Origin: Escherichia phage vB_EcoM_FB
DNA length: 64,000 bases
Sequence record: MT682711.1
Direction: 5' to 3' (one strand)
Shown: positions 14,506 to 39,506 of the stretch, piece by piece
Layout of the letters: each line of letters starts with the position of its first letter
Numbering within the stretch: the first letter of the stretch is position 1
The notes under the pieces: model-generated
Told to the model about the DNA's origin: nothing
Databases searched by the model: none
What the model saw: only the letters and a program-made list of their open reading frames with translations
Made by a program: the position numbers and the translations under genes

Positions 14506-15027
14506 TTAATAACCTCGGTCCTGGCGAGCAAAGTTCTCGGCATTTTTCAGGTAATACAGTTTAAAGATTTCTTCAGCAGTCAGTCCAAGACCTTGGAACA
14601 TATTCAGAACAAAGTGCAGAATATCAATCATTTCGAATTTAATTTCGAGCTGGTCTTCAGGAGACAAATCGTTAATCAGGGTTTCACGACGTTCAGCATG
14701 TTGAGCTTTCCAAGGCTTCCATACAGCGCTCGCATCTTTTTCGCCATTGCTCATGCCACCAAGAGAAGTCAGAAGTTCGCGGAATTCATCATCAATATAA
14801 TCTTTCTGATTGCGCAACCAATCAACAACTTCACCTGCAGTAGCCAAGTCATCAGGATGACGGTTATATTCAGGTTTATCTTTAGCCAAACGGACTTGTA
14901 ATGATTTCTGCATATCAAGCATAACCTGCAGAGGGTCTTTATCTTCGTGAATCAGAGCATTAAAATAAGCTTCCTCAGCTTTATCAACACCAGCAATAAG
15001 TTGTGAGCATTCGTTAAAGTGTGCCAT
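14506..15027 (-). CDS. 56: dCTP pyrophosphatase (MazG-like)
   Basis: 173 aa; N-terminus MAHFNECSQLIAGVDKA resembles T4 gp56 as recalled; map position. Confidence 0.8.
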   Translation of the reverse strand: MAHFNECSQLIAGVDKAEEAYFNALIHEDKDPLQVMLDMQKSLQVRLAKDKPEYNRHPDDLATAGEVVDWLRNQKDYIDDEFRELLTSLGGMSNGEKDASAVWKPWKAQHAERRETLINDLSPEDQLEIKFEMIDILHFVLNMFQGLGLTAEEIFKLYYLKNAENFARQDRGY

Positions 15028-20152: not shown

Positions 20153-20466
20153 CTCTTAGATTTAATTTTATCCAGTTCTTCTTGTATTTGCATTGTAACA
20201 CATTTTTCTACATGAAGCGCCAGCTCTTCTTTTCGGTCTTCGGAAGGTGTTCCGAAATCAACCGACACTTTTCCATCTTTCTCAATAACAATATTCATCA
20301 CATAAACGATGTGAGCAGTGCCATCGGGTAAAGTAAGCATAATTTCCTGCTTAACCGAACCCATTGACTTACGGATTATATCTAACGATTTCTCATAATA
20401 ACGAGGGTCACTAGGACCCTCTTCGGTATCTTTAACAAAATTATCTAAATCAGATAAATCAGTCAT
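20137..20466 (-). CDS. hypothetical protein at the T4 gene 40 position
   Basis: 109 aa ORF between uvsX and 41. Confidence 0.5.
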   Translation of the reverse strand: MTDLSDLDNFVKDTEEGPSDPRYYEKSLDIIRKSMGSVKQEIMLTLPDGTAHIVYVMNIVIEKDGKVSVDFGTPSEDRKEELALHVEKCVTMQIQEELDKIKSKRWWKW

Positions 20467-21631
20467 CTAAATCCATCTCTTCTAAATCGTTTTCGATATC
20501 AGCGGCACTTTGGGTATTGCCACCTAATTTAACAGCAACGTTCTTAGAGACACGAGAGTTAATAAGGTCGTTAACCGCATCGTCCACTTCTTTAATAGAA
20601 TTAATTGCACCAAGCTTATACTTATTCTCGATTGCTTCACGGAACGGGGCATGTTTAAACAGCGGTCCCCAGAACTCAACACAATCAGTAGCTTTAGCAC
20701 GCCATGCTTTTTCTTCTTGAACCATTTCACCCGTGGTTTCGTCAAGGAATGCACGATTATACCAGCCAGCTTTAGGTTTCACGACAAAGCCAATATCAGT
20801 AGCCATTTCAAGCAATCCACTGAATGGATCAATACCACCTTCAAAGTTAACGGTGATAGGGAACGTTGATTTCTCTTTAACCGTACGAGATTTCTCAGCC
20901 TTCAGTGTGAAGTCATAACCAGTGAGCTCAGTACCATCTTTAACCTGACGTTTAGAGATAAAGAACACGGTAGAAGCAGAGTACAGAATACCAGTACCAC
21001 CACCCATAATCTCTTTAGGGTACATTCCACCAATTTCCATAGCAGTGTGGTTAATTGCTACACAAGGGATATCCTTGATGGTCAGATAAGGTGTTACGAT
21101 ACGGAACAGAGATTTCAGTGACTTAGCACGAGTCATATCACCTACAACTTTCTCGTTCAAAGCATCTTCGGTTTCTTTCTTAGAAGCAGTGTTACCAATG
21201 GAGTCGATAAAGATAATAACCTTTTCGCCACGAGTAATTTCTTCTAACTGGTTGGTCATATCAACTTTAAGCTGTTCGACTGACTGGATTGGTGTATGAA
21301 CCACACGTTCCAAATCAACACCCATCGAACGGAAATAAGATTCTGAAGCACCGAACTCAGAGTCATAGAACAAACAAATTGCGTCTGGATATTTCTTCAT
21401 ATATGCCGCAACCATGGTAAGTCCAAACAACGTTTTAAAGTGTTTAGATGGAGCAGCAAAGATTGTCAAACCTGATTGTAAGCCTGCATTCAACGCACCG
21501 CCTAATGCAATATTCAGCATAGGGATACGAGTAGGAACTTCGTCACGACCATTAAACAATTTAGATTTGGTCAGGTCGGCAGTCATTTTAGAAGTAGAAG
21601 CTTTAATCAAACGGGATTTTAAATCAGACAT
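20459..21631 (-). CDS. uvsX: UvsX recombinase (RecA-like)
   Basis: 390 aa; MSDLKSRLIKASTSK N-terminus and overall similarity to T4 UvsX. Confidence 0.9.
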   Translation of the reverse strand: MSDLKSRLIKASTSKMTADLTKSKLFNGRDEVPTRIPMLNIALGGALNAGLQSGLTIFAAPSKHFKTLFGLTMVAAYMKKYPDAICLFYDSEFGASESYFRSMGVDLERVVHTPIQSVEQLKVDMTNQLEEITRGEKVIIFIDSIGNTASKKETEDALNEKVVGDMTRAKSLKSLFRIVTPYLTIKDIPCVAINHTAMEIGGMYPKEIMGGGTGILYSASTVFFISKRQVKDGTELTGYDFTLKAEKSRTVKEKSTFPITVNFEGGIDPFSGLLEMATDIGFVVKPKAGWYNRAFLDETTGEMVQEEKAWRAKATDCVEFWGPLFKHAPFREAIENKYKLGAINSIKEVDDAVNDLINSRVSKNVAVKLGGNTQSAADIENDLEEMDLDD

Positions 21632-21708: not shown

Positions 21709-22602
21709 TTAAAGGACCACGTCCTCATAACTTGGCATTTCGTGCTCAGAATGGATATGGGCACCGAAATAAATGAATTCAGCCAGACCAGGATGGAATA
21801 CTAAACCGGGATTCTCATGATAAATGATATGTGGTCTTGATTTCAGAATCTGATAATATTCAACCTTACTCGGTTTGAATTTAATAATCTCTACATCAGG
21901 ACGATAGTCTTCGCGCTTAAATGAATCGTTCGGGTCGGTGATGTAAAGACGAGCACCTTCAGCCGCAGCTTGGTCTACAACTCTTTCGAATTGATAGCAT
22001 TTATCTGAGATACGGAACGGATGGAAAATACCATCAATTTTAATAGGCGCTAGACCTTCAGAGTAACGCTCAATTACTGCAGGATTAATTACCTTTTGGT
22101 CTACAAAAATCTTATCAGAGGACGCACCTCGTGACACCAGGACGTCTTTCTGGCATTGATTCAGGACTGTAGTATAAATCGAACGTTCAACTGAAGACAC
22201 GTCGATATCAATGAACTCATCGATATAATAACGAGGAACTTCAGGGTCCATTGTAATGTTAAAGTTGAATTGTACAGTCTGGGTACCATCATAACCTGTG
22301 ATATCGGTTATTAATCCTGAGCAGTCATAGTATTCGATTAACGAATCAACAACGAACTCATTTTCAGACCAAAAATGTTTACGGGTTTCATAAGCATTTT
22401 CTTTATACCAAAGCGGTACAAAATTCAGTTCAGGAAACAATTCAATACATTCTTTGATATCGCTCGAATTTCTAGGATAAGCCAGATAATCACCTGGGCG
22501 AGCACGGTTTAAATGGGGTTGAAAATTACCGTCCTTAAGGACGGCATATTCACCTGTTTCGTAACTACGCATACTGAAAATAGGAACGATAAACAGACTC
22601 AT
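21709..22602 (-). CDS. hypothetical protein at the beta-gt position; candidate DNA sugar transferase
   Basis: 297 aa with no resemblance to T4 beta-glucosyltransferase as recalled; function assigned by position only. Confidence 0.4.
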   Translation of the reverse strand: MSLFIVPIFSMRSYETGEYAVLKDGNFQPHLNRARPGDYLAYPRNSSDIKECIELFPELNFVPLWYKENAYETRKHFWSENEFVVDSLIEYYDCSGLITDITGYDGTQTVQFNFNITMDPEVPRYYIDEFIDIDVSSVERSIYTTVLNQCQKDVLVSRGASSDKIFVDQKVINPAVIERYSEGLAPIKIDGIFHPFRISDKCYQFERVVDQAAAEGARLYITDPNDSFKREDYRPDVEIIKFKPSKVEYYQILKSRPHIIYHENPGLVFHPGLAEFIYFGAHIHSEHEMPSYEDVVL

Positions 22603-23297
22603 TTCAGGAATCCTCGAACGTAGTCAAAATCACGTTCAAACACGTGTGCACTAACCATAGTATGGGAATACGTACCCAGACCAACACCACACTGTTCAGC
22701 AATAAAGGCCATCAGTTTACCCTGCAGATAGAAATCCAGCTGCATAACGATAGCACAGTTCTGTGAACGCATATGAGTGTGTGCATACAGACGTCCATCA
22801 CGAATATAATATGTTACCGAATCGGTACATGGATATTCTAGGGATTCGTCAGAATCAAGGAGGGCTTGGTCTTGTTCTTGGAGAATCTGGAACACAACTC
22901 TTCGCGAGTTAGGCTTTTCTTTAAGCTCTTTAAGTAGGGCTGGGAGTTGGGCCACAATTCGAGGTCCATAGAAAGTGTTGAAGTTTGCAGGCAATACGTC
23001 ACTTTTCGGCTTATCAATGAACTTAGCAACATTAGGGTATTCCTTAAATGCTTCGGCGGCGTCAGTACCACCAGAAATCATAAATTTCCAAAAGGATTCG
23101 GCATAATCATAGTTGATACGATTAATACGAGGGTCGGTGAATTTATAGGTGCTTGCATCCAGTACTTCTACCGAAGCAGAACCAATTTCATAACAACGGC
23201 CGATACGGGAATCAACTGCAAACTGTGGAGCTTCCAGGATTTCTTCGTTCATTTGCTTAAACGCATTTTCAAAACTAACAGCGGTAATGTGTTTCAT
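22599..23297 (-). CDS. 42: dCMP hydroxymethylase (thymidylate synthase family)
   Basis: 232 aa; catalytic-Cys region PCTDSVTYYIRDGRL...HMRSQN resembles the T4 gp42 active-site region as recalled. Confidence 0.7.
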   Translation of the reverse strand: MKHITAVSFENAFKQMNEEILEAPQFAVDSRIGRCYEIGSASVEVLDASTYKFTDPRINRINYDYAESFWKFMISGGTDAAEAFKEYPNVAKFIDKPKSDVLPANFNTFYGPRIVAQLPALLKELKEKPNSRRVVFQILQEQDQALLDSDESLEYPCTDSVTYYIRDGRLYAHTHMRSQNCAIVMQLDFYLQGKLMAFIAEQCGVGLGTYSHTMVSAHVFERDFDYVRGFLK

Positions 23298-23830
23298 TTA
23301 TTCACCTTATTTTCAATATATTCATTCAGTCGTTTTAATTCTACCATATCAACATTAAGCAAATTATTATGGCCGTCGTGATTTAAGATTTTAAACACGT
23401 TTTCAAAACATGTTTCATACTGCCGGATAGTTAGGTTGAACTCATCTTTGGTTAATTTAATAAGGTCATCTTCGAAGTCTTCATCTAATGGATTACGGGT
23501 TAAAATAACCTCAATAATACTGAATTCAGATTTAAACCCTTTCCAATCTTCCAGTTCTACATAAGGGTCCATTTCACCACGAAGGAATCCCGAGTAAACA
23601 ATATTACTTGGATAACCACGGTCAAGGATGTAAACGAAATTAGGGTCTAAAAACTTATATAAGGTTTCGACTAAAGCCTTATCATTATCAGTCCCTATTG
23701 AAATGCACTTACCATTAATCTTTTTAGGAAAATCAATAAGACGATATTTCTTATCAGACAAAAGTGATTCAATTAAAGTAGACTTCCCGGAATTATCCGG
23801 GCCGTCGATAACAATGATTTTTGGTTTCAC
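23294..23830 (-). CDS. P-loop nucleotide kinase-like protein
   Basis: 178 aa; Walker A IDGPDNSGKST near N-terminus. Confidence 0.5.
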   Translation of the reverse strand: MKPKIIVIDGPDNSGKSTLIESLLSDKKYRLIDFPKKINGKCISIGTDNDKALVETLYKFLDPNFVYILDRGYPSNIVYSGFLRGEMDPYVELEDWKGFKSEFSIIEVILTRNPLDEDFEDDLIKLTKDEFNLTIRQYETCFENVFKILNHDGHNNLLNVDMVELKRLNEYIENKVNK

Positions 23831-24201
23831 GGATGATATGCCTTATAGGTTTCAAGAGTTCCTTCACGAACCATTTCTTTAAAGTGGTCAGGACGGATTG
23901 CTCGGTCATCGATGATAAAAGTATAACTCGGCTTATGTGTAAGCAGATTGTGATATTTCAATCCAATCTTTTCAAGGTTCTTAACTAATGCAGGAACTAC
24001 TTCAACCAAGATTCGACCTGGGCCGCATGAAGTCATACCACGGGCAGTGAACAAGGTAATCTCGTACCCTTCATCATAAAGCTTATTAATCATGGACACC
24101 ATTTCGGTGTCCGGTTTAAAGTTTTCGTAATCACGGTCATCTTGCCAGTGAGTAATGGTATTATCGATATCAAAACACAGATGCATTAAATTTTCTTCCA
24201 T
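23827..24201 (-). CDS. HAD-superfamily phosphatase
   Basis: 124 aa; motif I FDIDNT (DxDxT), Thr in FTAR, Lys in HKP, DD in FIIDDRA. Confidence 0.6.
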   Translation of the reverse strand: MEENLMHLCFDIDNTITHWQDDRDYENFKPDTEMVSMINKLYDEGYEITLFTARGMTSCGPGRILVEVVPALVKNLEKIGLKYHNLLTHKPSYTFIIDDRAIRPDHFKEMVREGTLETYKAYHP

Positions 24202-25859
24202 TGTTTGTGGAGTTCGGTAGAACCTGTAGGTTTATATTTTACACCAGTTTCCTGGTCAAGCAAAACCCACTTATCAGGACAACGAGTGATAATTTGAGCC
24301 GTGATAGGGTCACGAACTTCATCGACAAATTCACCTGTAATAAGCTTACGCTTACGAGGATGCCGCTTCAGCAGCACACTCAGTTGGTATAGACCGTTGT
24401 AATAAGCACCTAGAGCTTTCAGAGGATTATTCTTAAAGTAACCTGCCAGTGCCATCCAAATAACGGCAATCCAGAGCTTGTGCTTAAATGTACACATCGG
24501 AATATCATCTAAAGGCATAACCTTTTCAATATCAACGAATACACGAGTTCCGTTACGAGTTAAGCCACCCCATAGAGGGTCAGAGTTAAATTTGTCATAA
24601 CCATCGATAGAATAAAGCACCTTAGCTTCATCATAAATCGCAGGGCCTTTAGAACTATTACCAAAATAACCACGTGGGTCGATGATTTTAATATTACCTT
24701 CGTCCGACAACATAATATTACTGTAGTGCGGGTCGCCATGAATAAGTTGGTACGGTTCTTTATGTTCAGACAGAATTTCTAAGGCGTGACGAAGAAGTTT
24801 TTCTGGGTCGCCTACCTTGAAGTCGTTAACATGGGTAATACCCTGTGGAGCAAAGCCTTCAATCAATCCGGCAATAGAAGCATTACGAATAAGGACCTTG
24901 TCCAATACTTCTTTCTTAACATCAGAATACCATTGCTCATCGGACGGATTATCGATAGTTCCACCGAATGAACGTAATGCACTAATGACCTTATAAACCA
25001 TGAGTACTTTAGTTTCTTTAGACATAAACCGATAGGCATCTGCCATAGTACGACCAAAGATACGTTCCATTTTAATGAATTCACCTGGAGCAAAGTCTAC
25101 AATGCTCGGAACGAATTCAGAATCAATAGAATTATACCAATTGATTTCTTTAGATTGGATTTCTTTACCTAATTCGTTGGTAGGTACTTTAATAGCCAGA
25201 TTCTCAGTGAACTCTAATTTATTAAATTCACGGTTAATTTCGGATTCTTCATGGGCCTTAGCCAGTTTCAATTTGTCACCGACATCAACTACAAAGTCCA
25301 GCTTACGTTCAGTCAAATAGACCATTGAATCCAGGTTATCAGCAAGGTCTTCACCATAATTAGAACGGTCGAAACCTGTCCAATTAGCCACCTGATACAA
25401 GCCAACTACGCCACCACCGGTACCAATTTCACGCAAGTACGGTTCTTCAAATGTAAAACGACAGTCAGTCCCATAGGTATAACAGTAGTCGTTATCCCAC
25501 TCAACTTTATGACCTTCAGGAATAATATCACACCAGTTAAACAAGACATTGTGCCCAATGATATCTTCGGCAATGCAATCGATAGCATGAGCCGAACCAT
25601 TGGCAACATCAACGTTACGAATAGTGAATTTAGGCTTATCACTATTAATCATGTTAATGGATTTAATATAGCCTTTAACGAGGTCGTTAAATTTGCTGTG
25701 AATAACCAGAATAATTTCATCTGATTGATTACTATACAAATCATACAAATGTTTTAATACAGTATGTTGTTTGTAGTTAACCAGTACCTTCGGGATTTCG
25801 TTGGTAATTGGATACAACCGTGAGCCAAGACCCGCGCCTAAAATAACAACCTTTTTCAT
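24186..25859 (-). CDS. bifunctional sugar kinase / sugar-1-phosphate nucleotidyltransferase
   Basis: N-terminal ILGAGLGSRL...PK.L nucleotidyltransferase signature; C-terminal HGDPHYSNIM and IIDPRGY kinase motifs (APH/choline-kinase type); start moved to ATG at 25859 (MKKVVILGAG) with GAGGAA SD. Confidence 0.6.
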   Translation of the reverse strand: MKKVVILGAGLGSRLYPITNEIPKVLVNYKQHTVLKHLYDLYSNQSDEIILVIHSKFNDLVKGYIKSINMINSDKPKFTIRNVDVANGSAHAIDCIAEDIIGHNVLFNWCDIIPEGHKVEWDNDYCYTYGTDCRFTFEEPYLREIGTGGGVVGLYQVANWTGFDRSNYGEDLADNLDSMVYLTERKLDFVVDVGDKLKLAKAHEESEINREFNKLEFTENLAIKVPTNELGKEIQSKEINWYNSIDSEFVPSIVDFAPGEFIKMERIFGRTMADAYRFMSKETKVLMVYKVISALRSFGGTIDNPSDEQWYSDVKKEVLDKVLIRNASIAGLIEGFAPQGITHVNDFKVGDPEKLLRHALEILSEHKEPYQLIHGDPHYSNIMLSDEGNIKIIDPRGYFGNSSKGPAIYDEAKVLYSIDGYDKFNSDPLWGGLTRNGTRVFVDIEKVMPLDDIPMCTFKHKLWIAVIWMALAGYFKNNPLKALGAYYNGLYQLSVLLKRHPRKRKLITGEFVDEVRDPITAQIITRCPDKWVLLDQETGVKYKPTGSTELHKQWKKI

Positions 25860-25919
25860 TATCTGTTCCTCAAGTGAATGTAGGTACATTATACACTATT
25901 TTTAATAAATTGGTATTGC

Positions 25920-26420
25920 TTAAATCTTATCTTTACCGATTTCAATACACTGTTCTATTGCCGCTGGTGCTTTGGTCTTGAGCTTATCGATTTGTTTCTT
26001 ATAATCACGAGCTTTACCGAAGCTCTCGGTTTCGAGCATTTCGTAATAACGAGCCTCGTGGATGGAAATCTGTAGATTGATATGGTTTACGCACATCGCA
26101 TACAGTTTCTGCTTTTTGTACAAATCATCTTGACGCTTCATTTCTGCCTGGTGTTTGGCTAGTACCGCTTCACGCTTGGACTCTTGTTCACGTTGGAATT
26201 CGATTTCTTGTTGAGCATATTTTGCACAGTTATTACCGCATTGATTATTAGCTCGGGTGTACACAAGTCCAGAACCTGCACGGAATTTCATTTCGCCATC
26301 GAATTGTTTCTGTTCAGCTGCGATACGAGCTTTACCAACTTCATCGGCCGAAACTGTATCACCATATTGGACCGCGCAACCTGATAGGAGCATACTCATT
26401 GCGATAATTAACTTTTTCAT
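25920..26420 (-). CDS. putative lipoprotein
   Basis: 166 aa; signal peptide with lipobox LSGC. Confidence 0.55.
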   Translation of the reverse strand: MKKLIIAMSMLLSGCAVQYGDTVSADEVGKARIAAEQKQFDGEMKFRAGSGLVYTRANNQCGNNCAKYAQQEIEFQREQESKREAVLAKHQAEMKRQDDLYKKQKLYAMCVNHINLQISIHEARYYEMLETESFGKARDYKKQIDKLKTKAPAAIEQCIEIGKDKI

Positions 26421-26427
26421 AATATCC

Positions 26428-26565
26428 TCAATTAAAACAGTTATACTTAATTTGTGCTATAAGAATAATCCATCCAATGATGAGTGTCGGAATCATTGGC
26501 GGAATTGCCACTGCCCAATAAATGGTAAAGGCAGTCATTATAAGAAATAAAATAATTATTTTCAT
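26428..26565 (-). CDS. small membrane protein
   Basis: 45 aa hydrophobic ORF translated by hand; ATGA overlap with imm stop. Confidence 0.4.
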   Translation of the reverse strand: MKIIILFLIMTAFTIYWAVAIPPMIPTLIIGWIILIAQIKYNCFN

Positions 26566-26860: not shown

Positions 26861-29572
26861 TTAAAAGTCGAACATATCAAATAATGTTGCTTTTTTCTCG
26901 TAGTCGATTTTAGCAGACTCAGTAAAACCGGTCAGAGGTTTGATAAAGGTCTTTTGGAACAGTACGTTGTAGTCCATCCAACGGAGGACTTGGTCACGAA
27001 TCTGAACCGGAAGTTCAATACCTGACGGCCATGCCATACAAGCTTCACCAAACGGGTTGCCTTCTTTAAGTGGCAGTACATATACCTTTTCACCATCAAC
27101 GATACGAGGCATAGTCAAATCACCTGCAGAAGCACGCATGTAAGCTAAGCAACCTTTGATGTGGTATGGACATTTAGAACCCGGGAATCCACCTTCATTA
27201 TATTTCTCGATGTTGTTAGCACTGGATACTGCTGCAATGCTTACATAGTTGAGTTCGTTAAATTCCTTATTAAACTGTTTGAAATATTCTTGCAAAGATG
27301 CCTCGCCTTCCTGAAGCATACGACGGATACATTCCTTCAGAGCTTTCTGAACTGCTTTAGGTGTACTTGATTTCTGAGTTTCAAGGCCCATGATTTTCAA
27401 GTGCGGTTCGGCATAACGAGTACCTTCCATGTCCCAAACGTTCAGTGCATAACGTTTCTTGCCTGTCCAGAATCCACCAAGACCTTTAGAACCAAGTGGA
27501 GGACCTGCGATAGCTTCTCGGTCCATGAACATCAAGTGTTGTTTGTTGTTCATGTATTCGCACATCTCACGGAAGCCTGCATCAATAGCTGGTTCCATAC
27601 GTTCACGTGCAAATTTATCTAAGAAGTCTACCCAGTGGTTAGTATCACGGAATTTATCTTCGCCTACTTTATTGATGATTGCATCTGCCTTAACATAAAT
27701 GGAGTCAGTATCACCGTAGAGCACGAACTTCTGGTTTTCAGTCTTACACACGCTATTCAGATATTCGTTAACCTTACGTTCAATCCATTGGAGGGCCATT
27801 TGACCAAACAATGTGATTGCAGTTGCGTTCCTGAGGTCATAGTAACGGAACCATACGTTACCAAGTGCACCATAAAGGGAGTTGATAAGCAACTTACGGT
27901 TAATCTGAGCCGTGTTACCTGCAACTTCAGTGAGCTCGGCTTTCTTCAACATTTCTCTTAAAGAAGGCGCTGACAGTGCTTTAATCTGGGCTTTGATTTC
28001 GTCAGAGAAGTCAAAACGATAATCGATATCCAGTGGACTATCAACCGAGAGATTAGGATTTTCCAATGCTTCTTTAATTAACTCACCATTACGCTGAGCT
28101 GCAAGCATGTAACCTTTATGTTCTTTACGCTGCAAGAATACCTTGGTGATTTCTGTCGGAATCACACCTTCACGGTCTTTATAATACATCATGCCGTTAG
28201 GAGAGCAACTGTAGGTGTCGCTAGGACGCGGAGCTGTTCCGGCAATATATTCATGTATCGGTGCGTTAGCGAATGTCCCTGCGATGGTCTCTGGGCTTAT
28301 ATTCACTTGTCGAATGATACTCGGGTACAGAGATGTAAGGTCGAAACTCATTACATATTTGTAAGCGTTAGGAATCGGTTCCTTAACGAAAGCACCAGGA
28401 TAAGGTTGGACCACGTGCGAACGAGCTTGTGGAATTACCTTGCCTTGTTCTTTAAGGCTATTAAAGATAATAGCGTCCCAAGTCTTAATTGGACTAAACA
28501 CCGACTGAATCTGCATCTTGGCATAATAACCCATGTCCAAACTCAGAAGAATGAACTGACGCTTCATATCAATCTGCACTACACGATATACGTCGATAAT
28601 GTTATAGGAAATATATCGTTGGTGGTTCGTCTCACGTAACTTGGAGATTGGGCCATCATATTTCAACTTACCTACTTTCAATTCATATTCAGAAACATAA
28701 TCCAGAGAATAAGAAGGCTGGTTGGTAAAGCTGAATTTTTTATACAGGTCGATATAATCCAGAACAGAGATACCGAACAATGTAATGATTTCACGAGCAC
28801 CGTACATGTTCTCGATAACTTTAACACGAGTTTTACGATGTGGGCTTAATCGCTTAGCAGTGTTCTCACCGAACAGATTTTTCAGACGGTTATAAACGTA
28901 TGGTACGTCAAACGACTCAACGTTCCATCCAGTCAAAATCACAGGAGTTTTCTGTTGCCAGAAATTCAAGTACTCAAGCATCATTTCTTCTTCAGAATTA
29001 AACGGAAGATAAACGATTTTGTCAATGATTTCTTGTGGAACTTCGTCACCGCCTTCGTCTTGGAGTTTCTCAGCGATTTTAATCGACCACTCTTCGACAG
29101 TACCATAAGGCGAAACTAAAAGGTCGAATACATAGAATTTATCGTCAATCGAGTCGTAGTGGGTAATGGCATCGATAGGATGTTTAGCCTGAGCTGGTTC
29201 AGGGAATCCATCAGGAGATGTTACCTCGATGTCGAAGTTAGCAATACGAATCTTAGAAGAATCATATTTGATTTCTTTACGATAGGTATCAGACAAATAG
29301 GCTAATTTATAGTCGTCCATACCCAGGGCTTCGAGACCCATATCATCCATACGTTTCATCCATTGGGATGCATCACGCATAGAATCGAATTCTTTCTTAA
29401 CACAACCCTTACCATAGATATCAATGTATTTTACGGCTTGCTCTGGATTAGCATGCATAAACATTGTAGGCTTGTATGGAACTTCACGACTACGTTCGTT
29501 ACCATTTTTATCGATGTAACGTTCGAGAATATTATCACCGATTTGTTCGACTGTCAAATAGAATTCTTGCAT
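26861..29572 (-). CDS. 43: DNA polymerase (family B)
   Basis: N-terminus MQEFYLTVEQIGDNILERYID resembles T4 gp43 as recalled; exo motifs FDIEV and YNIIDV; YGDTDS polymerase motif; start trimmed from the TTG-extended track ORF. Confidence 0.9.
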   Translation of the reverse strand: MQEFYLTVEQIGDNILERYIDKNGNERSREVPYKPTMFMHANPEQAVKYIDIYGKGCVKKEFDSMRDASQWMKRMDDMGLEALGMDDYKLAYLSDTYRKEIKYDSSKIRIANFDIEVTSPDGFPEPAQAKHPIDAITHYDSIDDKFYVFDLLVSPYGTVEEWSIKIAEKLQDEGGDEVPQEIIDKIVYLPFNSEEEMMLEYLNFWQQKTPVILTGWNVESFDVPYVYNRLKNLFGENTAKRLSPHRKTRVKVIENMYGAREIITLFGISVLDYIDLYKKFSFTNQPSYSLDYVSEYELKVGKLKYDGPISKLRETNHQRYISYNIIDVYRVVQIDMKRQFILLSLDMGYYAKMQIQSVFSPIKTWDAIIFNSLKEQGKVIPQARSHVVQPYPGAFVKEPIPNAYKYVMSFDLTSLYPSIIRQVNISPETIAGTFANAPIHEYIAGTAPRPSDTYSCSPNGMMYYKDREGVIPTEITKVFLQRKEHKGYMLAAQRNGELIKEALENPNLSVDSPLDIDYRFDFSDEIKAQIKALSAPSLREMLKKAELTEVAGNTAQINRKLLINSLYGALGNVWFRYYDLRNATAITLFGQMALQWIERKVNEYLNSVCKTENQKFVLYGDTDSIYVKADAIINKVGEDKFRDTNHWVDFLDKFARERMEPAIDAGFREMCEYMNNKQHLMFMDREAIAGPPLGSKGLGGFWTGKKRYALNVWDMEGTRYAEPHLKIMGLETQKSSTPKAVQKALKECIRRMLQEGEASLQEYFKQFNKEFNELNYVSIAAVSSANNIEKYNEGGFPGSKCPYHIKGCLAYMRASAGDLTMPRIVDGEKVYVLPLKEGNPFGEACMAWPSGIELPVQIRDQVLRWMDYNVLFQKTFIKPLTGFTESAKIDYEKKATLFDMFDF

Positions 29573-29628
29573 TTCATTTCCTTTATAGACGAGTGATTGT
29601 CTTTTGTTTGTTGATGAATCATTATACT

Positions 29629-29650
29629 CCAAAAGGGACCGAAGTCCCTT
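29629..29650 (-). terminator. intrinsic terminator (UUCG hairpin) upstream of gene 43 leader
   Basis: aagggac-cgaa-gtccctt at 29633-29650 with A-rich plus flank. Confidence 0.55.
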
Positions 29651-33261: not shown

Positions 33262-33978
33262 ATGAATTATAAATCAATATACGAAAAGCTTATTCAACGA
33301 GCAGTTAATAGAAATTTAACTACCTATAAAGAACGTCATCACATTATACCACAATGTATGGGTGGAACGGATGACGCTTTAAACTTGGTAGACTTAACAC
33401 CTGAAGAACATTACTTGGCTCATCAGTTGTTAGTTAAAATCCATCCAGATAATGTATCACTAGTCTATGCGGCAAGAATGATGACAATTAGCTCACCAAA
33501 TGCTGATAGGTCTAAAAATAAATTATTTGGATGGCTTCGTCGTAAGAATTCAGAAGTCCAAAAGGATAAAGAATTCTCGGAAGAAACCAGAAAGAAAATG
33601 TCGATTTCTGCTTTAAAAAAGCCTAGAGTTACCTGTCCACACTGTGGTAAAACCGGTTTGGTAGGCAATATGAACAGATGGCATTTTGATAATTGTCCTA
33701 AAGGCCCTAATAAAGTGGTTCATACTATACCAAAAGAACAAAAAGATAAAATATCAAACACTTTTAAGAATAAAGTATTTGAATTGGTTAATTGCCAGTT
33801 TTGTGGTATAGAAGGTAAGAAGAGCGTTATAGTAACCCATCAATATTTTTGCAAATTAAACCCTAACCGTAAAAAGAAAGAGGACCCTAAAATAAAGTGT
33901 CCTCATTGCGATAAAGTAGGAATACCTGCCAATATGAAACGTTGGCATTTTGATAATTGCAAATTAAAGCCTCAATAA
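33262..33978 (+). mobile_element. free-standing HNH homing endonuclease gene with C-terminal zinc-ribbon repeats
   Basis: ERHHIIPQCMGG...NLV.L...EHYLAH HNH motif; three repeats of CPHC.K.G...NM.RWHFDNC; only plus-strand gene in the replication cluster, inserted between 46 and the rpbA-position gene. Confidence 0.7.
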
Positions 33979-33983
33979 GAGGC

Positions 33984-35666
33984 TTATTCCAATACAGTAA
34001 ATCTACCGACCTTCTTCATTTGAAGGTGTTGTCCATACGATTGAGGGTCATGGTCCTTATGAGAAATTATAAAGATATTAGAATCTTCCAAAGAATTTAT
34101 AATATTAGATACACCTTTAATACCCTCTGCATCAAAACTTCCATCAAAAACTTCATCTAAAATTAAAGTGCTTATATGTATTCCCGAGACTCGAGAAGCA
34201 ATATCACGCCATGTAAACAATAAAGCCACATCTATTCTAGACTTTTCACCTTCACTAAATGAAGCATAACTAAAGTCTTCACGTCCACGTGATTTAATCG
34301 TCTCGTTGAATTCTTCGTCTAGGGTAAAGACGTAGTCAGCTTCCATAATCTTCAAATAAGAATTTATCTGCTTATTAAAGATAGGAATGTATTTCTTAAT
34401 AATGGAACCTTTAATACCAGTATCCTTCAACATTTCTGTCAGAATTCCACGATGATATTTTTCCATTACTAAGGACGATTTGGTAGAGACGATTTTATCA
34501 AGCTCTGCTTGAAGCGCGGCAATCTCTTCGGCATTACTTACGAACTCAGCAGCTGCTTGGTCGATTAATACTTTAACTTTTTTAGCTTTCTCTACGGCAG
34601 TAATGGCTTGTTGCTTATGAGTAGCTATCTGAGATTTAATAGCCAGCGCTTTATTACGTTGTTCGGTTACTTGGTCCTTAATGAGCTTGAGTTCTTGGTA
34701 CTGCTCATTAATCTTATCCAAAGATTTTTGAAGTTCAAAGTTCTTATCCTTAATTTTAGTAAGGATGTTTCCATGCTCTTCCAATCCTTGCATACACGTA
34801 GGGCAGTGGCCGCCTGTTTCGTATAATTTCACAACCTTAGTAAAGGTTGCCATATCATTCTTGATTGCAAATCCTTTATTGCTCAGGTCACTCATAGAGT
34901 CGCTAGGGTCATCACCAACGATGACATTGAGTAATTCATCAGTCAGGTTTTCTATATTGCCCTTCGCAGTCCTGGCTTCTTTAACTAGCTCGTCATACAT
35001 TACTTGTAGACGTGCTGCGTTCTCACCGGATAATTTACGCTGACGTTCTTCGTTGTCATTATAAATTTTAATCTGTTGGGTAATAGAATCCTGTTTAACG
35101 TCGATTACTTGGATTTGGCTATTAGTCTCACGAATCAAAGATTTGTTCAACTTATCCATATCCGCTAATACAGAAACCTCTAAGAGGTCTTCCACAAGCT
35201 TTCGGCGCGCAGGGGTCGACAAACCCATGAAAGGGGTATACCCTGCTGTACCAAGTACGACAATCTGTTTGAAACTGGTATATGACATTCCGATAAGCTG
35301 TTCAAATTCTGCTTGGAAGTCTTTACTGCTGGCAGATTCATCAAGACGTTCACCGCCACAAGAGATTTCAAAAATATTGGGTTTTTGCCCGCGCTTGATA
35401 TAGTATTCTTTGCCATCATATTCCATCCACAGTTCGACCAAAAGGTCTTTCTTATTACTTGAGTTAATCAACTGCCCTTTCTTAACATCACGAAAAGGCT
35501 TACCGAACAGAGCAAATGTAACGGCTTCAAGGAACGTAGATTTCCCAGCGCCATTTTTACCGGTGACTAAGGTCTTTTGGACCTTATCAAGTTGGATTGT
35601 AATAGATTGCTGACCTACCGACATAATATTTTTATACGTTACTTTCTTTAACTTAAACGTTTTCAT
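33984..35666 (-). CDS. 46: recombination ATPase (Rad50/SbcC-like)
   Basis: 560 aa (same as T4 gp46); Walker A GKNGAGKST; coiled-coil middle with CPTC zinc hook; C-terminal ILDEVFD. Confidence 0.9.
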   Translation of the reverse strand: MKTFKLKKVTYKNIMSVGQQSITIQLDKVQKTLVTGKNGAGKSTFLEAVTFALFGKPFRDVKKGQLINSSNKKDLLVELWMEYDGKEYYIKRGQKPNIFEISCGGERLDESASSKDFQAEFEQLIGMSYTSFKQIVVLGTAGYTPFMGLSTPARRKLVEDLLEVSVLADMDKLNKSLIRETNSQIQVIDVKQDSITQQIKIYNDNEERQRKLSGENAARLQVMYDELVKEARTAKGNIENLTDELLNVIVGDDPSDSMSDLSNKGFAIKNDMATFTKVVKLYETGGHCPTCMQGLEEHGNILTKIKDKNFELQKSLDKINEQYQELKLIKDQVTEQRNKALAIKSQIATHKQQAITAVEKAKKVKVLIDQAAAEFVSNAEEIAALQAELDKIVSTKSSLVMEKYHRGILTEMLKDTGIKGSIIKKYIPIFNKQINSYLKIMEADYVFTLDEEFNETIKSRGREDFSYASFSEGEKSRIDVALLFTWRDIASRVSGIHISTLILDEVFDGSFDAEGIKGVSNIINSLEDSNIFIISHKDHDPQSYGQHLQMKKVGRFTVLE

Positions 35667-35887
35667 GTATTGTTCTCACGAATTGTTTGTTCAGCATATT
35701 CTAGCATTTCTTCGGAAGAAGCAAACACGTCGTCAAGTTCCATGGCCCATGAAACACCTTCAGAATATTCAGAAGTGACATACATAGTTCCGGTATACCA
35801 AGAACCATCCACGTCCCATTCTACATTACCGAACCAGCCATCGCCAATATGAAAATCATGTTTATACATTTTCATCATTATAAGCAT
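35663..35887 (-). CDS. hypothetical protein
   Basis: 74 aa ORF between 47 and 46. Confidence 0.5.
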   Translation of the reverse strand: MLIMMKMYKHDFHIGDGWFGNVEWDVDGSWYTGTMYVTSEYSEGVSWAMELDDVFASSEEMLEYAEQTIRENNT

Positions 35888-36125
35888 CCTTGATGCATGA
35901 TTCAGCCATATGAATTAATGTTTCTGGAGTATCATCTACCATTACATTAAAGCTAAATTCCACAGCCCAATCAGTAGCAACATAAACTTTAATAAGCTCG
36001 TTGGTATCGCGAGTGCTCACGGCTTCAAACCAGAACTTAATGATATTCGTTTGGTTATCGTCATCAATAACGATGCAGTCGTGTTCTAGTTCAAGGCCTG
36101 ATTTTTTGAATTCATCTAAAGTCAT
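35862..36125 (-). CDS. hypothetical protein
   Basis: 87 aa ORF between 47 and 46. Confidence 0.5.
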   Translation of the reverse strand: MTLDEFKKSGLELEHDCIVIDDDNQTNIIKFWFEAVSTRDTNELIKVYVATDWAVEFSFNVMVDDTPETLIHMAESCIKDAYNDENV

Positions 36126-37144
36126 CGTGTAACCTCATTATAAAGTTGTGCGGCCATAGTCTTAAGGGCTTTAACATCGTCTTCAGTGTGGCCATCAGGA
36201 AGGGCATCGATATAATCATACATCATATCCAAGAGGGACTTAACTTCATCTTCCTCTTCAGAATCATCGATATCAACACTGTTATCTACCTTAGACACAA
36301 TACGTAAAGAGTGAACAACCTTTTCAAGTTCAGATTCGAACTTGGTAAGCCCGTCATCAATTTTATCGACTATAACACGAACCGCAATATTTGTAAAATC
36401 TTTGTAATCGATAGTCGCATTCGGATAATGAATCTTACGATGCCAACAAGTTTCATTGATGATGAAATCCATTTTATGGGTTTCTGTATCGAAAATCCAG
36501 AAGCCACGAGGGTCGTTCTCATCACCTGCAGTCAGGGTCCATGGCGTACCAATATACTTGACGTTTGCTGCATCAGAAATGGTGTGGAAGTGACCAGACC
36601 ATACTTGCTTATACTTCTTAAGGAAATCAGGTTCTAAACCATGTGATTTCATTCCTTTATAGAAATAGAAACCATTTAATTCCCAGTGGCCAATACAGAA
36701 ATCGGCAGTAGTATTTTTGATATGGTCCATGATATCGGTCGTGTTTTCTTCACACATCCATGGAATCAAATCAATTTCTGTACCATCAAAATTAACCGTA
36801 GTAGGTTTCTCAATAACCTTGATATGGTCGTATTTACCCAGAACTTCAGAAGCAGCGTTCGGAGTCAATGTGTTTTTGTAGTGCATATCATGGTTACCAA
36901 CGACCGTATACATGGTAATGCCGTTGGCTTTAAGCAAATCGGAGATTTCGCGAGCGAATTCCATACACTTATGGGTAATTGCTTTACGAACGTCAAAGAT
37001 ATCACCGTATTGAATCCATACAGTAATGCCATTTGCTTTAGAATAATTAATAGCGTCTTGGATACCTTGACGTTGGATATTTTGTACCCACACATCATCG
37101 GCCTTCACTCCAAGGTGCCAGTCACCTGTGTTTAATATTTTCAT
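36122..37144 (-). CDS. 47: recombination nuclease (Mre11/SbcD-like)
   Basis: Phosphoesterase motifs GDWHLG, GDIFD, GNHD; start set to ATG at 37144 (MKILNTGDW), giving 340 aa versus 339 in T4. Confidence 0.9.
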   Translation of the reverse strand: MKILNTGDWHLGVKADDVWVQNIQRQGIQDAINYSKANGITVWIQYGDIFDVRKAITHKCMEFAREISDLLKANGITMYTVVGNHDMHYKNTLTPNAASEVLGKYDHIKVIEKPTTVNFDGTEIDLIPWMCEENTTDIMDHIKNTTADFCIGHWELNGFYFYKGMKSHGLEPDFLKKYKQVWSGHFHTISDAANVKYIGTPWTLTAGDENDPRGFWIFDTETHKMDFIINETCWHRKIHYPNATIDYKDFTNIAVRVIVDKIDDGLTKFESELEKVVHSLRIVSKVDNSVDIDDSEEEDEVKSLLDMMYDYIDALPDGHTEDDVKALKTMAAQLYNEVTR

Positions 37145-37284
37145 AAGCCAAGCGCCGTTATTGCAATGCAAAATAAAATTATTGAAATGAACCCGTCAGG
37201 AGTGGAAAAGAATCCTATCCAACAAGCTCGTGTGAATGTGTAGAATGCCATGAATAACACGACATATCCTAAAAGTAGTTCCAT
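37141..37284 (-). CDS. small membrane protein
   Basis: 47 aa hydrophobic ORF translated by hand; TGAGGAGAA SD; ATGA overlap with gp47 start. Confidence 0.45.
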   Translation of the reverse strand: MELLLGYVVLFMAFYTFTRACWIGFFSTPDGFISIILFCIAITALGL

Positions 37285-37325
37285 ATGTTCTCCTCAGTTG
37301 GTTCATTTTATCATCCAAATATAAA

Positions 37326-37350
37326 GCAAAAAAGGAGCCTAAGCTCCTTT
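37326..37350 (-). terminator. intrinsic terminator (hairpin plus U tract)
   Basis: aaaggagc-ctaa-gctccttt at 37331-37350, A5 on plus flank. Confidence 0.6.
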
Positions 37351-37512
37351 ACCAACTAATACACCGTACAGAGGTTCGTGATTAGACCTGAACTTGATAG
37401 GCTTATAGGTAATAGTACCTTCATTTTCTGCTTTAATACGAGCGGCTTCAAATTGAAGTATCATCTCATTTTTGTCAGATTTAATCTTATCAAAATCCAT
37501 CGAATTCGTCAT
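37339..37512 (-). CDS. hypothetical small protein
   Basis: 57 aa ORF translated by hand; AAGAGG SD; stop lies in terminator hairpin. Confidence 0.4.
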   Translation of the reverse strand: MTNSMDFDKIKSDKNEMILQFEAARIKAENEGTITYKPIKFRSNHEPLYGVLVGKGA

Positions 37513-37570
37513 TCATACAACCTCTTAAACTTTTTCGTATTCGTCTTTCATTAGCCGCCTGTCCACGTTA

Positions 37571-37771
37571 TCATCGTTGCCACCATTTCTTAAGTTGATG
37601 AGAATCTACCCAAACCTTGGCTACGGGCTCAATCCGAAAAATTCCATCGGAATACTGGCCGACCATTTTATATTCGGTTTCGGACTGCTTAATACAGATA
37701 TTACCGTATGAGCGAAGTCTAAAGGCGGCTCCAATAAGAAGCCGTTTAAAGGGTTTATTTACTAGGGCCAT
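37571..37771 (-). CDS. hypothetical protein
   Basis: 66 aa ORF. Confidence 0.45.
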   Translation of the reverse strand: MALVNKPFKRLLIGAAFRLRSYGNICIKQSETEYKMVGQYSDGIFRIEPVAKVWVDSHQLKKWWQR

Positions 37772-38066
37772 TGACGATTTCCCAAATTTGTTTGCGGGTA
37801 GATTCCCACATCAATTGAACAAGTTCATCAGTAACAGGTTGACGGTAAATACCACGTAATTTAATTAAAGCGTACTTATATGCTTCAAAGTTGTTTTCAA
37901 GTACAGCGCCTTGGGCATGGAGATTTAAACGACGGATTTCACGAGCATTCTTCTTAAGAATCTTAGCCGCTTGAGAATTAGCTTCTTTAATATTGTGCTC
38001 TTCTAAACGTTGCTGGGCTTCTTCAATTTGCTCATCAGTCAATTGAGAAATGTCATGGCTTTGCAT
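37755..38066 (-). CDS. hypothetical protein
   Basis: 103 aa ORF. Confidence 0.5.
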   Translation of the reverse strand: MQSHDISQLTDEQIEEAQQRLEEHNIKEANSQAAKILKKNAREIRRLNLHAQGAVLENNFEAYKYALIKLRGIYRQPVTDELVQLMWESTRKQIWEIVNGPSK

Positions 38067-38067
38067 A

Positions 38068-38334
38068 TTAATCCTTTGGAGTCAATTCAATAGTGAAGTA
38101 GAAATTAGCGTTCTCAACATGATAACGATAATCTACGTTATTGTCAGGAGAAGTGAATTCAATATTCCTGACGTTAAGTGGGTCAATATCAATAGGAAGG
38201 CCTTTAACATCCCGTAATATCAATTTAATAAAATAAGGGAGTGCTTCGAAGTCTTCCATTCCATCTAAAAGTGGAGTGATATTAATCTGATGTTCCATAT
38301 AAAAAATCCAGTTCACCAACTTTAGGTTCGGCAC
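38068..38334 (-). CDS. hypothetical protein
   Basis: 88 aa ORF. Confidence 0.5.
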
Positions 38335-38839
38335 TCTTATCAGACCCTGGTGCTTTAGTTAAAGAGGTTTCATACTGAGTCATTTTGTCGTAGATATCTT
38401 GGATAAAGGTTTCATCTGCAATACCTACCATGTCGTCATCATTACTGTCATAGACATTATGGACGAAGTAGCTATATTTCTTTGCCATTTCTTTACGTTC
38501 TTTTTTGATACGCTGAACGAAGGCATTAAAACAAGCCATAGTGATATATGCATGTGGGTTGTCGTATTTTGTTTCGTCGAAATTGTGAAGACCTTTAATC
38601 GAAGCTTCGATTCCATCAGCTATCATTTCCTGCCGCCAAGATTGGGTATATCCTGAGAAGTTGAAACGCTTGCTGAGGCCTTCTGCTATAAGCATAATAG
38701 CCAATCCTATAGTATCATTTTGTCTAATGATTTTATTAGGGTCGGTGTTAGCATATAATTCCTGCTTCCAACTTGTAATAGCTTTAAGAAGCTCCTTGTT
38801 ATTTACATAATTATTTTTTGTTAACTTCACCTGATTCAT
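38282..38839 (-). CDS. 55: late-transcription sigma factor
   Basis: NYVNNKELL...[28 protein letters not shown]...[22 protein letters not shown] matches T4 gp55 as recalled; start set to ATG at 38839. Confidence 0.9.
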
Positions 38840-39506
38840 AAGCCCTCTTAAACCTATCAACTAGTGGTCTAAAATTATTTATCGTATATGGATAACCTAG
38901 TTCACAGCATTTGCGCCAGAATTTAGAATAACTAGGGCGTCCTTCCTTAATCCAAAGTTCATGGAACTCATCATATAATACATATGTTGGATTTTTAGCA
39001 AACTTGGAATAATTCTCTATAGAGTAATATTCTTTGTTCTTTTTACTTTTGGCCTCTCTAACTTCAGGATTAGCATTATACTCTTTATGGATTCGACGCA
39101 TCATTTCTCGATGCTCTTCATTTTCCCAAGACTTTTTAATAGAGTTGGAAACCCGCTCTTTATATTCAGGGTCCTGCCAGCGTTCGGTAACTTCTTTAGA
39201 CTGTTCTTCAAGTCTTTCCGGTGTCGGAGGAGCATAACCACCTATACCACCAGGTTTCATATTGACGCAGTTAGTTATTTCGGACATGGCATTTTCTACC
39301 AAAAGCTCTTCAAATTCAAAAGCAAGCTCACTTGTCTCAAAATAACATAAGGCCTCTATATTAAAAGAGCATTTCCCTGAGGCCTTAGCATCTTCTACGA
39401 ATTTGCCACTACCGACATACCCGTCATCTATAAATCCGGTGTGTTTACCGAAATAGTAATAAGTATCATTTTCGGATTTTATAGTGGTCATATAACAATA
39501 GTGCAT
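38811..39506 (-). mobile_element. GIY-YIG homing endonuclease gene (Seg-like)
   Basis: 231 aa; N-terminal YYYFGKH...GYVGSG GIY-YIG motif; basic C-terminal tail; stop overlaps gp55 start. Confidence 0.6.

Follow-up and report, generated by a model that had tools for sequence, protein, structure and literature searches.

The 64,000-nucleotide stretch of the Escherichia phage vB_EcoM_FB genome analysed here (sequence record MT682711.1; hereafter, the window) contains at positions 21709-25859 a cluster of five genes that is most likely the Dhakavirus version of the arabinosyl-5-hydroxycytosine pathway, known from RB69 (gp45-gp53), HY126 (Afh) and Acinetobacter phage DLP3 (gp76-83). Homology, predicted folds, motifs, synteny and gene content were computed in this analysis. 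For what the hydroxylase, AfhE and AfhF do, and for UDP-arabinofuranose (UDP-Araf) as the sugar donor, we rely on published work on orthologs; we infer that the host supplies arabinose-5-phosphate, that a single arabinose is attached, and what parts the first glycosyltransferase and a thymidylate kinase (Tmk)-like protein play. As it is orthologous to a characterised system and its genus has already been listed, the cluster is essentially known, and our analysis repeats work of 2018 and 2025-2026. Dhakaviruses were named by comparative genomics among the genera with a syntenic cluster (PMC13326640), IME08 gp43 was identified as homologous to the RB69 ORF53_52c fusion over its full length (Thomas et al. 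2018, PMC6024577), and JS98 was reported to have a gene-42 allele but no glucosyltransferase (Petrov et al. 2010). The initial annotation of this DNA regarded the enzymology of such a module as largely undescribed, a view overtaken by Mahler et al. (Cell Host Microbe 2025), He et al. (Nat Chem Biol 2026) and Lee et al. (NAR 2026), as these studies are cited in PMC13326640.

The five genes are all encoded on the minus strand with consecutive overlaps of 1-4 nt and lie between uvsX and imm/gene 43 (Table 1), an operon-like layout. With published T4-like Dhakavirus genomes, for instance those of IME540, QL01 and Bp7, the window shares 97.5% identity. Beginning at rIIA, it is collinear with the opening 64 kb of the genome of QL01, a Dhakavirus, and the 4.5-kb cluster region was found by megablast at 95-97.5% identity in 51 phage genomes, including those of IME540, LHE83, QL01, WG01, Bp7, MX01 and IME08. 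The complete genome of QL01 (170.5 kb), which is 97.4% identical, was used to stand for the whole Dhakavirus genome. When RB69 and T4 reference proteins from annotated records were run by tblastn against the window, every RB69 component of this five-gene set gave a match (E 1e-30 to 6e-129), and the synteny of the cluster is kept in RB69, Marfa and phiP4-3. The link to RB69-like phages made in the initial annotation is thus borne out by shared orthologs and synteny, and the BLAST comparison that it proposed places orthologs of the RB69 gp45-gp53 genes in the cluster; the three co-oriented open reading frames (ORFs) that it listed are all present with the motifs quoted. The base composition of the block did not distinguish it from its flanks, and a scan for promoters and terminators gave no more sites than shuffled controls.

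The identity of the modified base is indicated by the 232-aa ThyA homolog. This protein contains the Pfam domain PF00303 (E 4.8e-14), is 79% identical to RB69 gp48 but 25% identical to T4 gp42 (tblastn), and matches PDB entries 9iqu, 9iqc and 9ir2 over residues 1-231 (E 1.5e-125). We take these entries to be the HY126 enzyme because the adjacent entry, 9iqz, is named 'phage HY126 glycosyltransferase'. In a MAFFT alignment of E. coli ThyA, T4 gp42, RB69 gp48 and the window protein, the catalytic Cys146 (E. coli numbering) is kept in all four sequences. Position 177 is Asn in E. coli ThyA and Asp in the three phage proteins, and at position 169 E. coli ThyA and T4 gp42 have Asp, RB69 gp48 and the window protein Asn. 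An Asn at the latter position marks 5-hydroxy-dCMP (5hodCMP) synthase activity (Lee et al. NAR 2026, PMC13326640), a diagnostic that was also tried on nine further homologs in the same study. RB69 gp48 itself is a flavin-containing 5hodCMP synthase that takes the oxygen from O2, as shown by 18O labelling, and 5hodCMP is phosphorylated by a gp1-type dNMP kinase (PMC13326640). By analogy with this verified relative, the window protein, which combines the ThyA fold and catalytic Cys with the D169N substitution and Asp177, is predicted to be a flavin- and O2-dependent dCMP 5-hydroxylase. Outside the cluster, the window also encodes a homolog of the gp56 dCTPase, with 92% identity to its RB69 counterpart across 173 aa (E 6e-109, tblastn); gp56 supplies dCMP and removes dCTP in the T4 and RB69 pathways (PMC13326640 Table 1).

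In the DNA of RB69 and DLP3, mono- and poly-arabinofuranosyl 5-hydroxycytosine (5hoC) was found with the sugar ether-linked directly to C5 (PMC13326640), and the earlier assignment of RB69 DNA as arabinosyl-5-hydroxymethylcytosine (arabinosyl-hmC) was called erroneous (PMC13390438). Asn169, the low identity to T4 gp42 and the absence of T4-type glucosyltransferase genes set the window apart from T4-type glucosylation of hmC, and its sequence suggests that the phage DNA probably lacks hmC. The production of hmC by a gp42 enzyme, as the initial annotation had it, therefore does not agree with the Asn169 signature, the identity values or the 9iqu match. Its further proposal, arabinosyl-hmC as in RB69, keeps the arabinose and the connection to RB69 but not the base, since RB69 has been revised to arabinosyl-5-hydroxycytosine (PMC13326640, PMC13390438).

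The sugar-activating enzymes are a fusion protein and a small HAD phosphatase. Two Pfam domains were detected above their cut-offs in the fusion (numbered here on a 567-aa ORF): NTP_transferase at residues 13-110 (E 2.4e-8) and APH at residues 356-427 (E 7.2e-6). The motifs of both are intact, namely GAGLGSRLYPIT (ILGAGLGSRL, the G-x-G-x-R-L loop), HGDPHYSN (H-x-D-x4-N) and, with the Asp downstream of it, IIDPRGY, as expected of an AfhE-type enzyme and as the initial annotation had described them. The protein is collinear with RB69 gp53 plus gp52 (41-45% identity), 82% identical to its Marfa counterpart and matched by PHROG 4098 over its full length (6.6e-269); RB69 gp53 and gp52 represent a single gene (PMC6024577), as do gp46 and gp47, which were split by a sequencing error (PMC13326640). 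MurU, the top structural match for the N-terminal domain of the RB69 fusion (PMC13326640), was among the NCBIfam matches of the window fusion. A PDB sequence search with the fusion returned no solved structure of this enzyme (best match, E 3e-4). The RB69 fusion is, for Mosigvirus, the equivalent of HY126 AfhE. HY126 AfhE acts both as a kinase for arabinose-5-phosphate and as a UDP-arabinose pyrophosphorylase, according to the account of He et al. 2026 given in PMC13326640, and by analogy the same two activities are predicted for the window fusion.

The HAD protein contains motifs I-IV of this superfamily, i.e. FDIDNT (DxDxT), the Thr in FTARG, the Lys in HKP and the DD in FIIDDRA. Its matches in Pfam are weak, and it hits TIGR01689 ('capsule biosynthesis phosphatase') with E 1.6e-14, at 53.9 bits against a cut-off of 162. 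In the PDB, it matches 9iqw (E 2.8e-53) and 1xpj (2.8e-12), and it is 62% identical to RB69 gp51 (tblastn), placing it with the AfhF-type phosphatases and upholding its first identification as a HAD phosphatase. HY126 AfhF is, in the same account of He et al. 2026 (PMC13326640), a Mg-dependent phosphatase acting on the 1,5-bisphosphate. We propose by analogy that the window protein would convert arabinofuranose-1,5-bisphosphate to arabinofuranose-1-phosphate. The module for an NDP-sugar that had been suspected here, with a kinase, a distal phosphatase and a nucleotidyltransferase in an ADP-heptose-like order, thus matches the published Afh/RB69 route to UDP-Araf.

The remaining kinase of the cluster, a P-loop protein, has a thymidylate-kinase fold; it shows the nucleoside monophosphate (NMP)-kinase fold, the P-loop and the DR(Y/H) motif, and is 37% identical to RB69 gp45 (tblastn). 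Because it scores far below the curated Tmk cut-offs (PF02223, 15 bits versus 27; TIGR00041, 18.9 versus 83), we regard it as a protein with the Tmk fold but as a non-canonical Tmk. Gluconate- and shikimate-type sugar kinases have the same fold, so that the fold alone does not rule out a sugar-kinase role, which was what the initial annotation had assigned to this protein. That role is disfavoured by other evidence. In Rhizobium phage RL38J1, a Tmk-like kinase is encoded beside a glycosyltransferase and a 5hoC synthase, and the sugars are galactose and glucose (PMC13326640), suggesting that the kinase tracks the base or the first transfer rather than arabinose activation. In addition, the route from arabinose-5-phosphate to UDP-arabinose, as far as it is set out in PMC13326640, requires only the fusion and the HAD protein, with the APH domain of the fusion as the sugar kinase. 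Therefore, the P-loop kinase is probably not a sugar kinase and probably phosphorylates the dNMP of a modified pyrimidine.

At the position of beta-gt in T4 lies the gene for a 297-aa protein that is 64-69% identical to RB69 gp46 and gp47 (tblastn). Its family comprises 115 clusters, the named members of which are all from phages, and has no Pfam domain. A PDB search with the family profile found nothing useful, and an AlphaFold model built from a 36-sequence alignment (predicted local distance difference test score, 94.5) has structural neighbours among lipopolysaccharide (LPS) and cell-wall glycosyltransferases. The protein was classified as a glycosyltransferase of this pathway by its orthology, its GT-B fold and the location of its gene directly downstream of the 5hodCMP synthase gene. 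From its sequence relationships, we propose that it places arabinose on 5hoC, and in vitro, DNA arabinosylation uses UDP-Araf as donor (PMC13326640). Neither T4 alpha-gt nor beta-gt gave a tblastn match at E<1 in either the window or the complete QL01 genome, and an ORF check found no alpha-gt-sized gene between genes 47 and 55. These results agree with the earlier remarks that the ORF at the beta-gt position does not resemble T4 beta-gt and that the DNA carries a modification other than glucose, the latter being still a prediction.

Taken together, these assignments outline a pathway with two branches. In the base branch, gp56 would yield dCMP, which the ThyA homolog would hydroxylate at C5 with flavin and O2 to give 5hodCMP; the host NDK and a dNMP kinase of the gp1 type, whose gene lies outside the window, would then produce 5hodCTP, to be inserted by gp43 instead of dCTP. 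The Tmk-fold protein would most likely phosphorylate a modified pyrimidine dNMP rather than a sugar. In the sugar branch, D-arabinose-5-phosphate would be provided by the host KdsD/GutQ, which we invoke because a phage isomerase is absent. The C-terminal APH-type domain of the fusion would phosphorylate C1, the HAD phosphatase would remove the 5-phosphate, and the N-terminal nucleotidyltransferase domain would form UDP-Araf. Finally, the GT-B enzyme would place the arabinose on the 5-OH of cytosine.

The Dhakavirus gene set is the smallest seen. The five core genes are present in the window and QL01, Marfa, phiP4-3 and RB69. A U32-like protein is encoded in the latter three but not in the window or QL01, and an arabinose-5-phosphate isomerase (API) is present in phiP4-3 and RB69, absent from the locus examined in Marfa and absent from the window and QL01. 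A second glycosyltransferase is present in RB69 and likewise missing from the window and QL01. Specifically, RB69 gp55 (API), gp50 (U32-like), gp49 and gp3 (second arabinosyltransferase) gave no tblastn match at E<1 in the window or in the whole of QL01, and a Pfam scan of nine large QL01 ORFs that carry no annotation turned up neither a hidden glycosyltransferase nor a SIS domain. The phage collection has 367 records with the fusion and 270 with the isomerase; thus, about a quarter of the fusion-bearing phage records have no API. Arabinose-5-phosphate is a constitutive product of KdsD/GutQ in E. coli and Klebsiella, where it is used in the synthesis of 3-deoxy-D-manno-octulosonic acid (Kdo). 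Given the single glycosyltransferase in the genome, a mono-arabinosyl product is predicted, and Shewanella phage Thanatos, which has a single arabinosyltransferase, is mono-arabinosylated (PMC13326640). The simplest reading is that the host's arabinose-5-phosphate would be used and that Dhakavirus DNA would carry mono-arabinosyl-5-hydroxycytosine.

The U32-peptidase-family protein (Pfam E 7e-11) is encoded at L002:6493-7662 in RB69 (gp50), L010:7817-8977 in Marfa and L011:7826-8992 in phiP4-3, and in other genera it is the best-conserved protein of the cluster (83-89% identity). The characterised U32 members RlhA, TrhP and UbiU/V are O2-independent hydroxylases. By analogy, the U32-like protein could be an anaerobic route to 5hoC that has no counterpart in Dhakavirus; Lee et al. 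refer to it as a 'sugar or heterocycle reductase' (PMC13326640).

Several points weigh against the assignment of the cluster to arabinosyl-5-hydroxycytosine synthesis. The window phage lacks the API that RB69, DLP3 and phiP4-3 carry, so that the arabinose rests on a presumed supply by the host. Identity to the RB69 counterparts is only 45% for the fusion and 37% for the Tmk-like protein. The first arabosyl transfer is a proposed role for the glycosyltransferase family of RB69 gp46:47 and DLP3 gp79; single glycosyltransferases were inactive on 5hoC-DNA, and whether the step takes place at the nucleotide or the DNA level was left undecided (PMC13326640). Moreover, a study of Thanatos reported UDP-xylose pyrophosphorylase activity for a homolog of this glycosyltransferase. 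Finally, a nucleoside analysis of any Dhakavirus DNA was not found in the searchable literature, and the sugar and the base in Dhakavirus are for this reason given as predictions. The negative assays with single glycosyltransferases and the Thanatos report leave room for a nucleotide-level step, in which the glycosyltransferase and the Tmk-fold kinase would act on the mononucleotide: 5hodCMP would be arabinosylated and then phosphorylated by its dedicated kinase, and the sugar would enter the DNA via the polymerase. This pair of proteins accompanies the hydroxylase even in phages with other sugars. We consider such a variant unlikely.

The missing isomerase also bears on the sugar itself. The base could be 5hoC and the sugar of Dhakavirus and Marfavirus something other than arabinose, for example if ribose-5-phosphate or some other plentiful sugar phosphate were activated instead; the absence of API from the whole QL01 genome, the Marfa cluster and about a quarter of the fusion records, the low identity of the fusion to the RB69 enzyme and the presence of galactose and glucose on 5hoC in RL38J1 (PMC13326640) would all fit. 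Against this, the HAD and glycosyltransferase partners are 62-66% identical to those of RB69, and the host KdsD/GutQ would give arabinose-5-phosphate constitutively. Divergence as a sign of changed specificity was considered and rejected, because both proteins diverge as fast between RB69 and phiP4-3, which are both API-positive (54% identity for the fusion and 40% for the Tmk-like protein), and the divergence is thus not lineage-specific. A sugar other than arabinose therefore appears quite improbable. Arabinosyl-hmC, with a non-glucose sugar on the hydroxymethyl group of a gp42 product, can draw on the cytosine-specifying Asp177 that the ThyA-superfamily protein shares with T4 gp42, and on older literature in which the JS98 and RB69 genes were alleles of gene 42 and RB69 DNA was arabinosyl-hmC. 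It is very improbable, as Asn169 is the residue of the proven hydroxylases and Asp169 that of T4 gp42, the closeness is to RB69 gp48, for which 18O from O2 and the formation of 5hodC were demonstrated, and the hmC assignment of RB69 has been explicitly withdrawn as an error (PMC13390438). Least probable of all, and only barely conceivable, is a sugar module that serves a host or virion glycoconjugate in a capsule- or LPS-type pathway rather than DNA. The closest curated family of the HAD protein is TIGR01689, under the name of which 9iqw was deposited, and the structural neighbours of the glycosyltransferase point in the same direction; but the HAD protein falls well short of the TIGR01689 cut-off, the genes overlap the dCMP hydroxylase gene inside a block of DNA-replication genes, and the same cluster accounts for the arabinose in virion DNA of RB69, DLP3 and HY126 (PMC13326640).

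The arabinosyl-5-hydroxycytosine pathway proposed for the window shares with the RB69, HY126 and DLP3 clusters the same five protein families, the gene 43-uvsX slot and the presence of the gp56 dCTPase, and differs from RB69 in lacking the four proteins named above. The Tmk-like gene lies between the HAD and hydroxylase genes in the window and in Marfa but next to uvsX in RB69, and the predicted product is mono-arabinosyl, not di- or tri-arabinosyl. In common with hmC glucosylation in T4, the window encodes a pre-replicative modification of dCMP by a ThyA-superfamily enzyme, a dCTPase and a GT-B enzyme in the same neighbourhood. However, flavin/O2-dependent hydroxylation is predicted here instead of the folate-dependent hydroxymethylation in T4, phage-made UDP-Araf is predicted instead of host UDP-glucose, and no sequence homology between the glycosyltransferase and alpha-gt or beta-gt was detectable.

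The order of reactions also recalls the ADP-heptose pathway (GmhA, HldE and GmhB), in which an isomerase (the host's in the present case), an anomeric kinase giving a bisphosphate, a HAD phosphatase taking off the distal phosphate and a nucleotidyltransferase act, with the kinase and the transferase fused. The folds are unrelated: APH/choline-kinase and RmlA/MurU in the window fusion versus PfkB/ribokinase and cytidylyltransferase in HldE. Neither a PfkB nor a CTP_transf_like domain was detected in the fusion by Pfam or NCBIfam, and the cluster does not belong to the HldE/GmhB system. The resemblance is one of logic only, an analogy and not membership. The MurU/AmgK pair likewise combines an APH-family anomeric sugar kinase with a minimal uridylyltransferase, but these are separate proteins that act on another sugar with neither a bisphosphate intermediate nor a phosphatase step.

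Table 1. Genes of the 21709-25859 cluster, its flanks and an accessory gene in the window
Gene or product	Position	Strand	Remarks
GT-B glycosyltransferase (beta-gt position)	21709-22602	-	297 aa; RB69 gp46:47 ortholog, proposed base-proximal 'arabinosyltransferase 1'
ThyA-superfamily dCMP 5-hydroxylase (5hodCMP synthase), predicted	22599-23297	-	232 aa; not a gp42-type hydroxymethylase
Thymidylate-kinase-fold P-loop kinase	23294-23830	-	178 aa; RB69 gp45 homolog; motif IDGPDNSGKST
Small HAD phosphatase (AfhF / RB69 gp51 type)	23827-24201	-	124 aa; 119 aa from second Met
Nucleotidyltransferase/APH-kinase fusion (AfhE / RB69 gp53:52 type)	24186-25859	-	557 aa
gp56 dCTPase/dUTPase, accessory	14509-15027	-	outside the 21709-25859 interval; 92% identity to RB69 gp56
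uvsX, flank of cluster	20459-21631		
imm, flank of cluster	26562-26798		
Gene 43, flank of cluster	26861-29632		

Two start sites deserve comment. The ATG of the fusion gene at 25859 is preceded by a Shine-Dalgarno sequence, GAGGAA, 6 nt upstream and agrees with the RefSeq annotation of QL01. The start of the mechanically called 567-aa ORF, at 25889, sits on a TATAAT-like hexamer, and we take the 557-aa form as correct. The true start of the HAD protein is likely the Met at 24186, as annotated in RefSeq QL01.

The public names of the cluster genes lag behind the literature and are misleading. The HAD phosphatase is annotated as 'phosphoheptose isomerase' in RefSeq (QL01, Marfa and RB69) and in PHROG 1238. 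In RefSeq and PHROGs, the hydroxylase and the P-loop kinase are called 'thymidylate synthase' and 'thymidylate kinase', respectively, and the glycosyltransferase and the fusion are 'hypothetical' or of unknown function. The fusion of nucleotidyltransferase and kinase domains was also found in large Vibrio phages (D481 and F86) and in Chryseobacterium phage MA9V-2, with identities of 24-28%; in the latter phage it lies beside a KpsF/GutQ isomerase. No homologs of the hydroxylase, glycosyltransferase, HAD or Tmk-like proteins were detectable at the Vibrio D481 and Chryseobacterium loci examined, and the fusion module may serve other glycosylation targets in these phages.

The cluster appears to be a mosaic. 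Four of its proteins (the fusion and the HAD, Tmk-like and hydroxylase proteins; 22599-25859) share 82-85% identity with Klebsiella phage Marfa but only 37-78% with RB69. Among the flanking proteins, gp43 (26861-29572 compared) shares 83.5% identity with RB69 and 69% with Marfa, and UvsX shares 90% with RB69; the glycosyltransferase is nearly equidistant (68% and 66%). This pattern suggests that the cassette was swapped between phage lineages. Between the fusion gene and imm, two further minus-strand genes are present, which have no obvious tie to the modification pathway: a 166-aa ORF (25920-26420) that has a lipoprotein-type signal, MKKLIIAMSMLLSGC, matches PHROG 1754 and resembles T4 Imm.1 at its N-terminus as judged by eye, and a 45-aa hydrophobic peptide (26428-26565) that is 58% identical to RB69 gp54.

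Two differences from QL01 were found elsewhere in the window. The rIIA gene (50-2254) has an in-frame TAG at 1340-1342 on the minus strand (ACA TAG GAA versus ACA CAG GAA in QL01), and the ORF list accordingly splits it into fragments of 304 and 390 aa. An amber mutation, natural variation or a sequencing error could account for the TAG. The gene 46-47-55 region (33984-38860) is offset by several hundred bases from its QL01 counterpart (33262-38567), and an HNH endonuclease gene located just upstream of gene 47 in QL01 is absent from the window at an ORF threshold of 100 aa. This points to insertions or deletions arising from homing endonucleases.

What remains of interest in this cluster is its minimal gene content and the chemistry of Dhakavirus DNA. 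A set with neither isomerase nor U32-like protein and with a single transferase is convenient for defining the required components of the pathway. If arabinosylation took place at the nucleotide level, or if the pentose were not arabinose, the five-gene cassette would stand as a separate version of the pathway. Which host defences detect or overlook the phage depends on the modified base, including restriction enzymes, type IV systems (GmrSD/BrxU), CRISPR nucleases and DNA glycosylases, and also affects the behaviour of the DNA in sequencing and engineering. Dhakaviruses are common candidates for phage therapy against E. coli, and the modification predicted for their DNA is arabosyl-5-hydroxycytosine, not the hmC assumed by older reviews and present database annotation.

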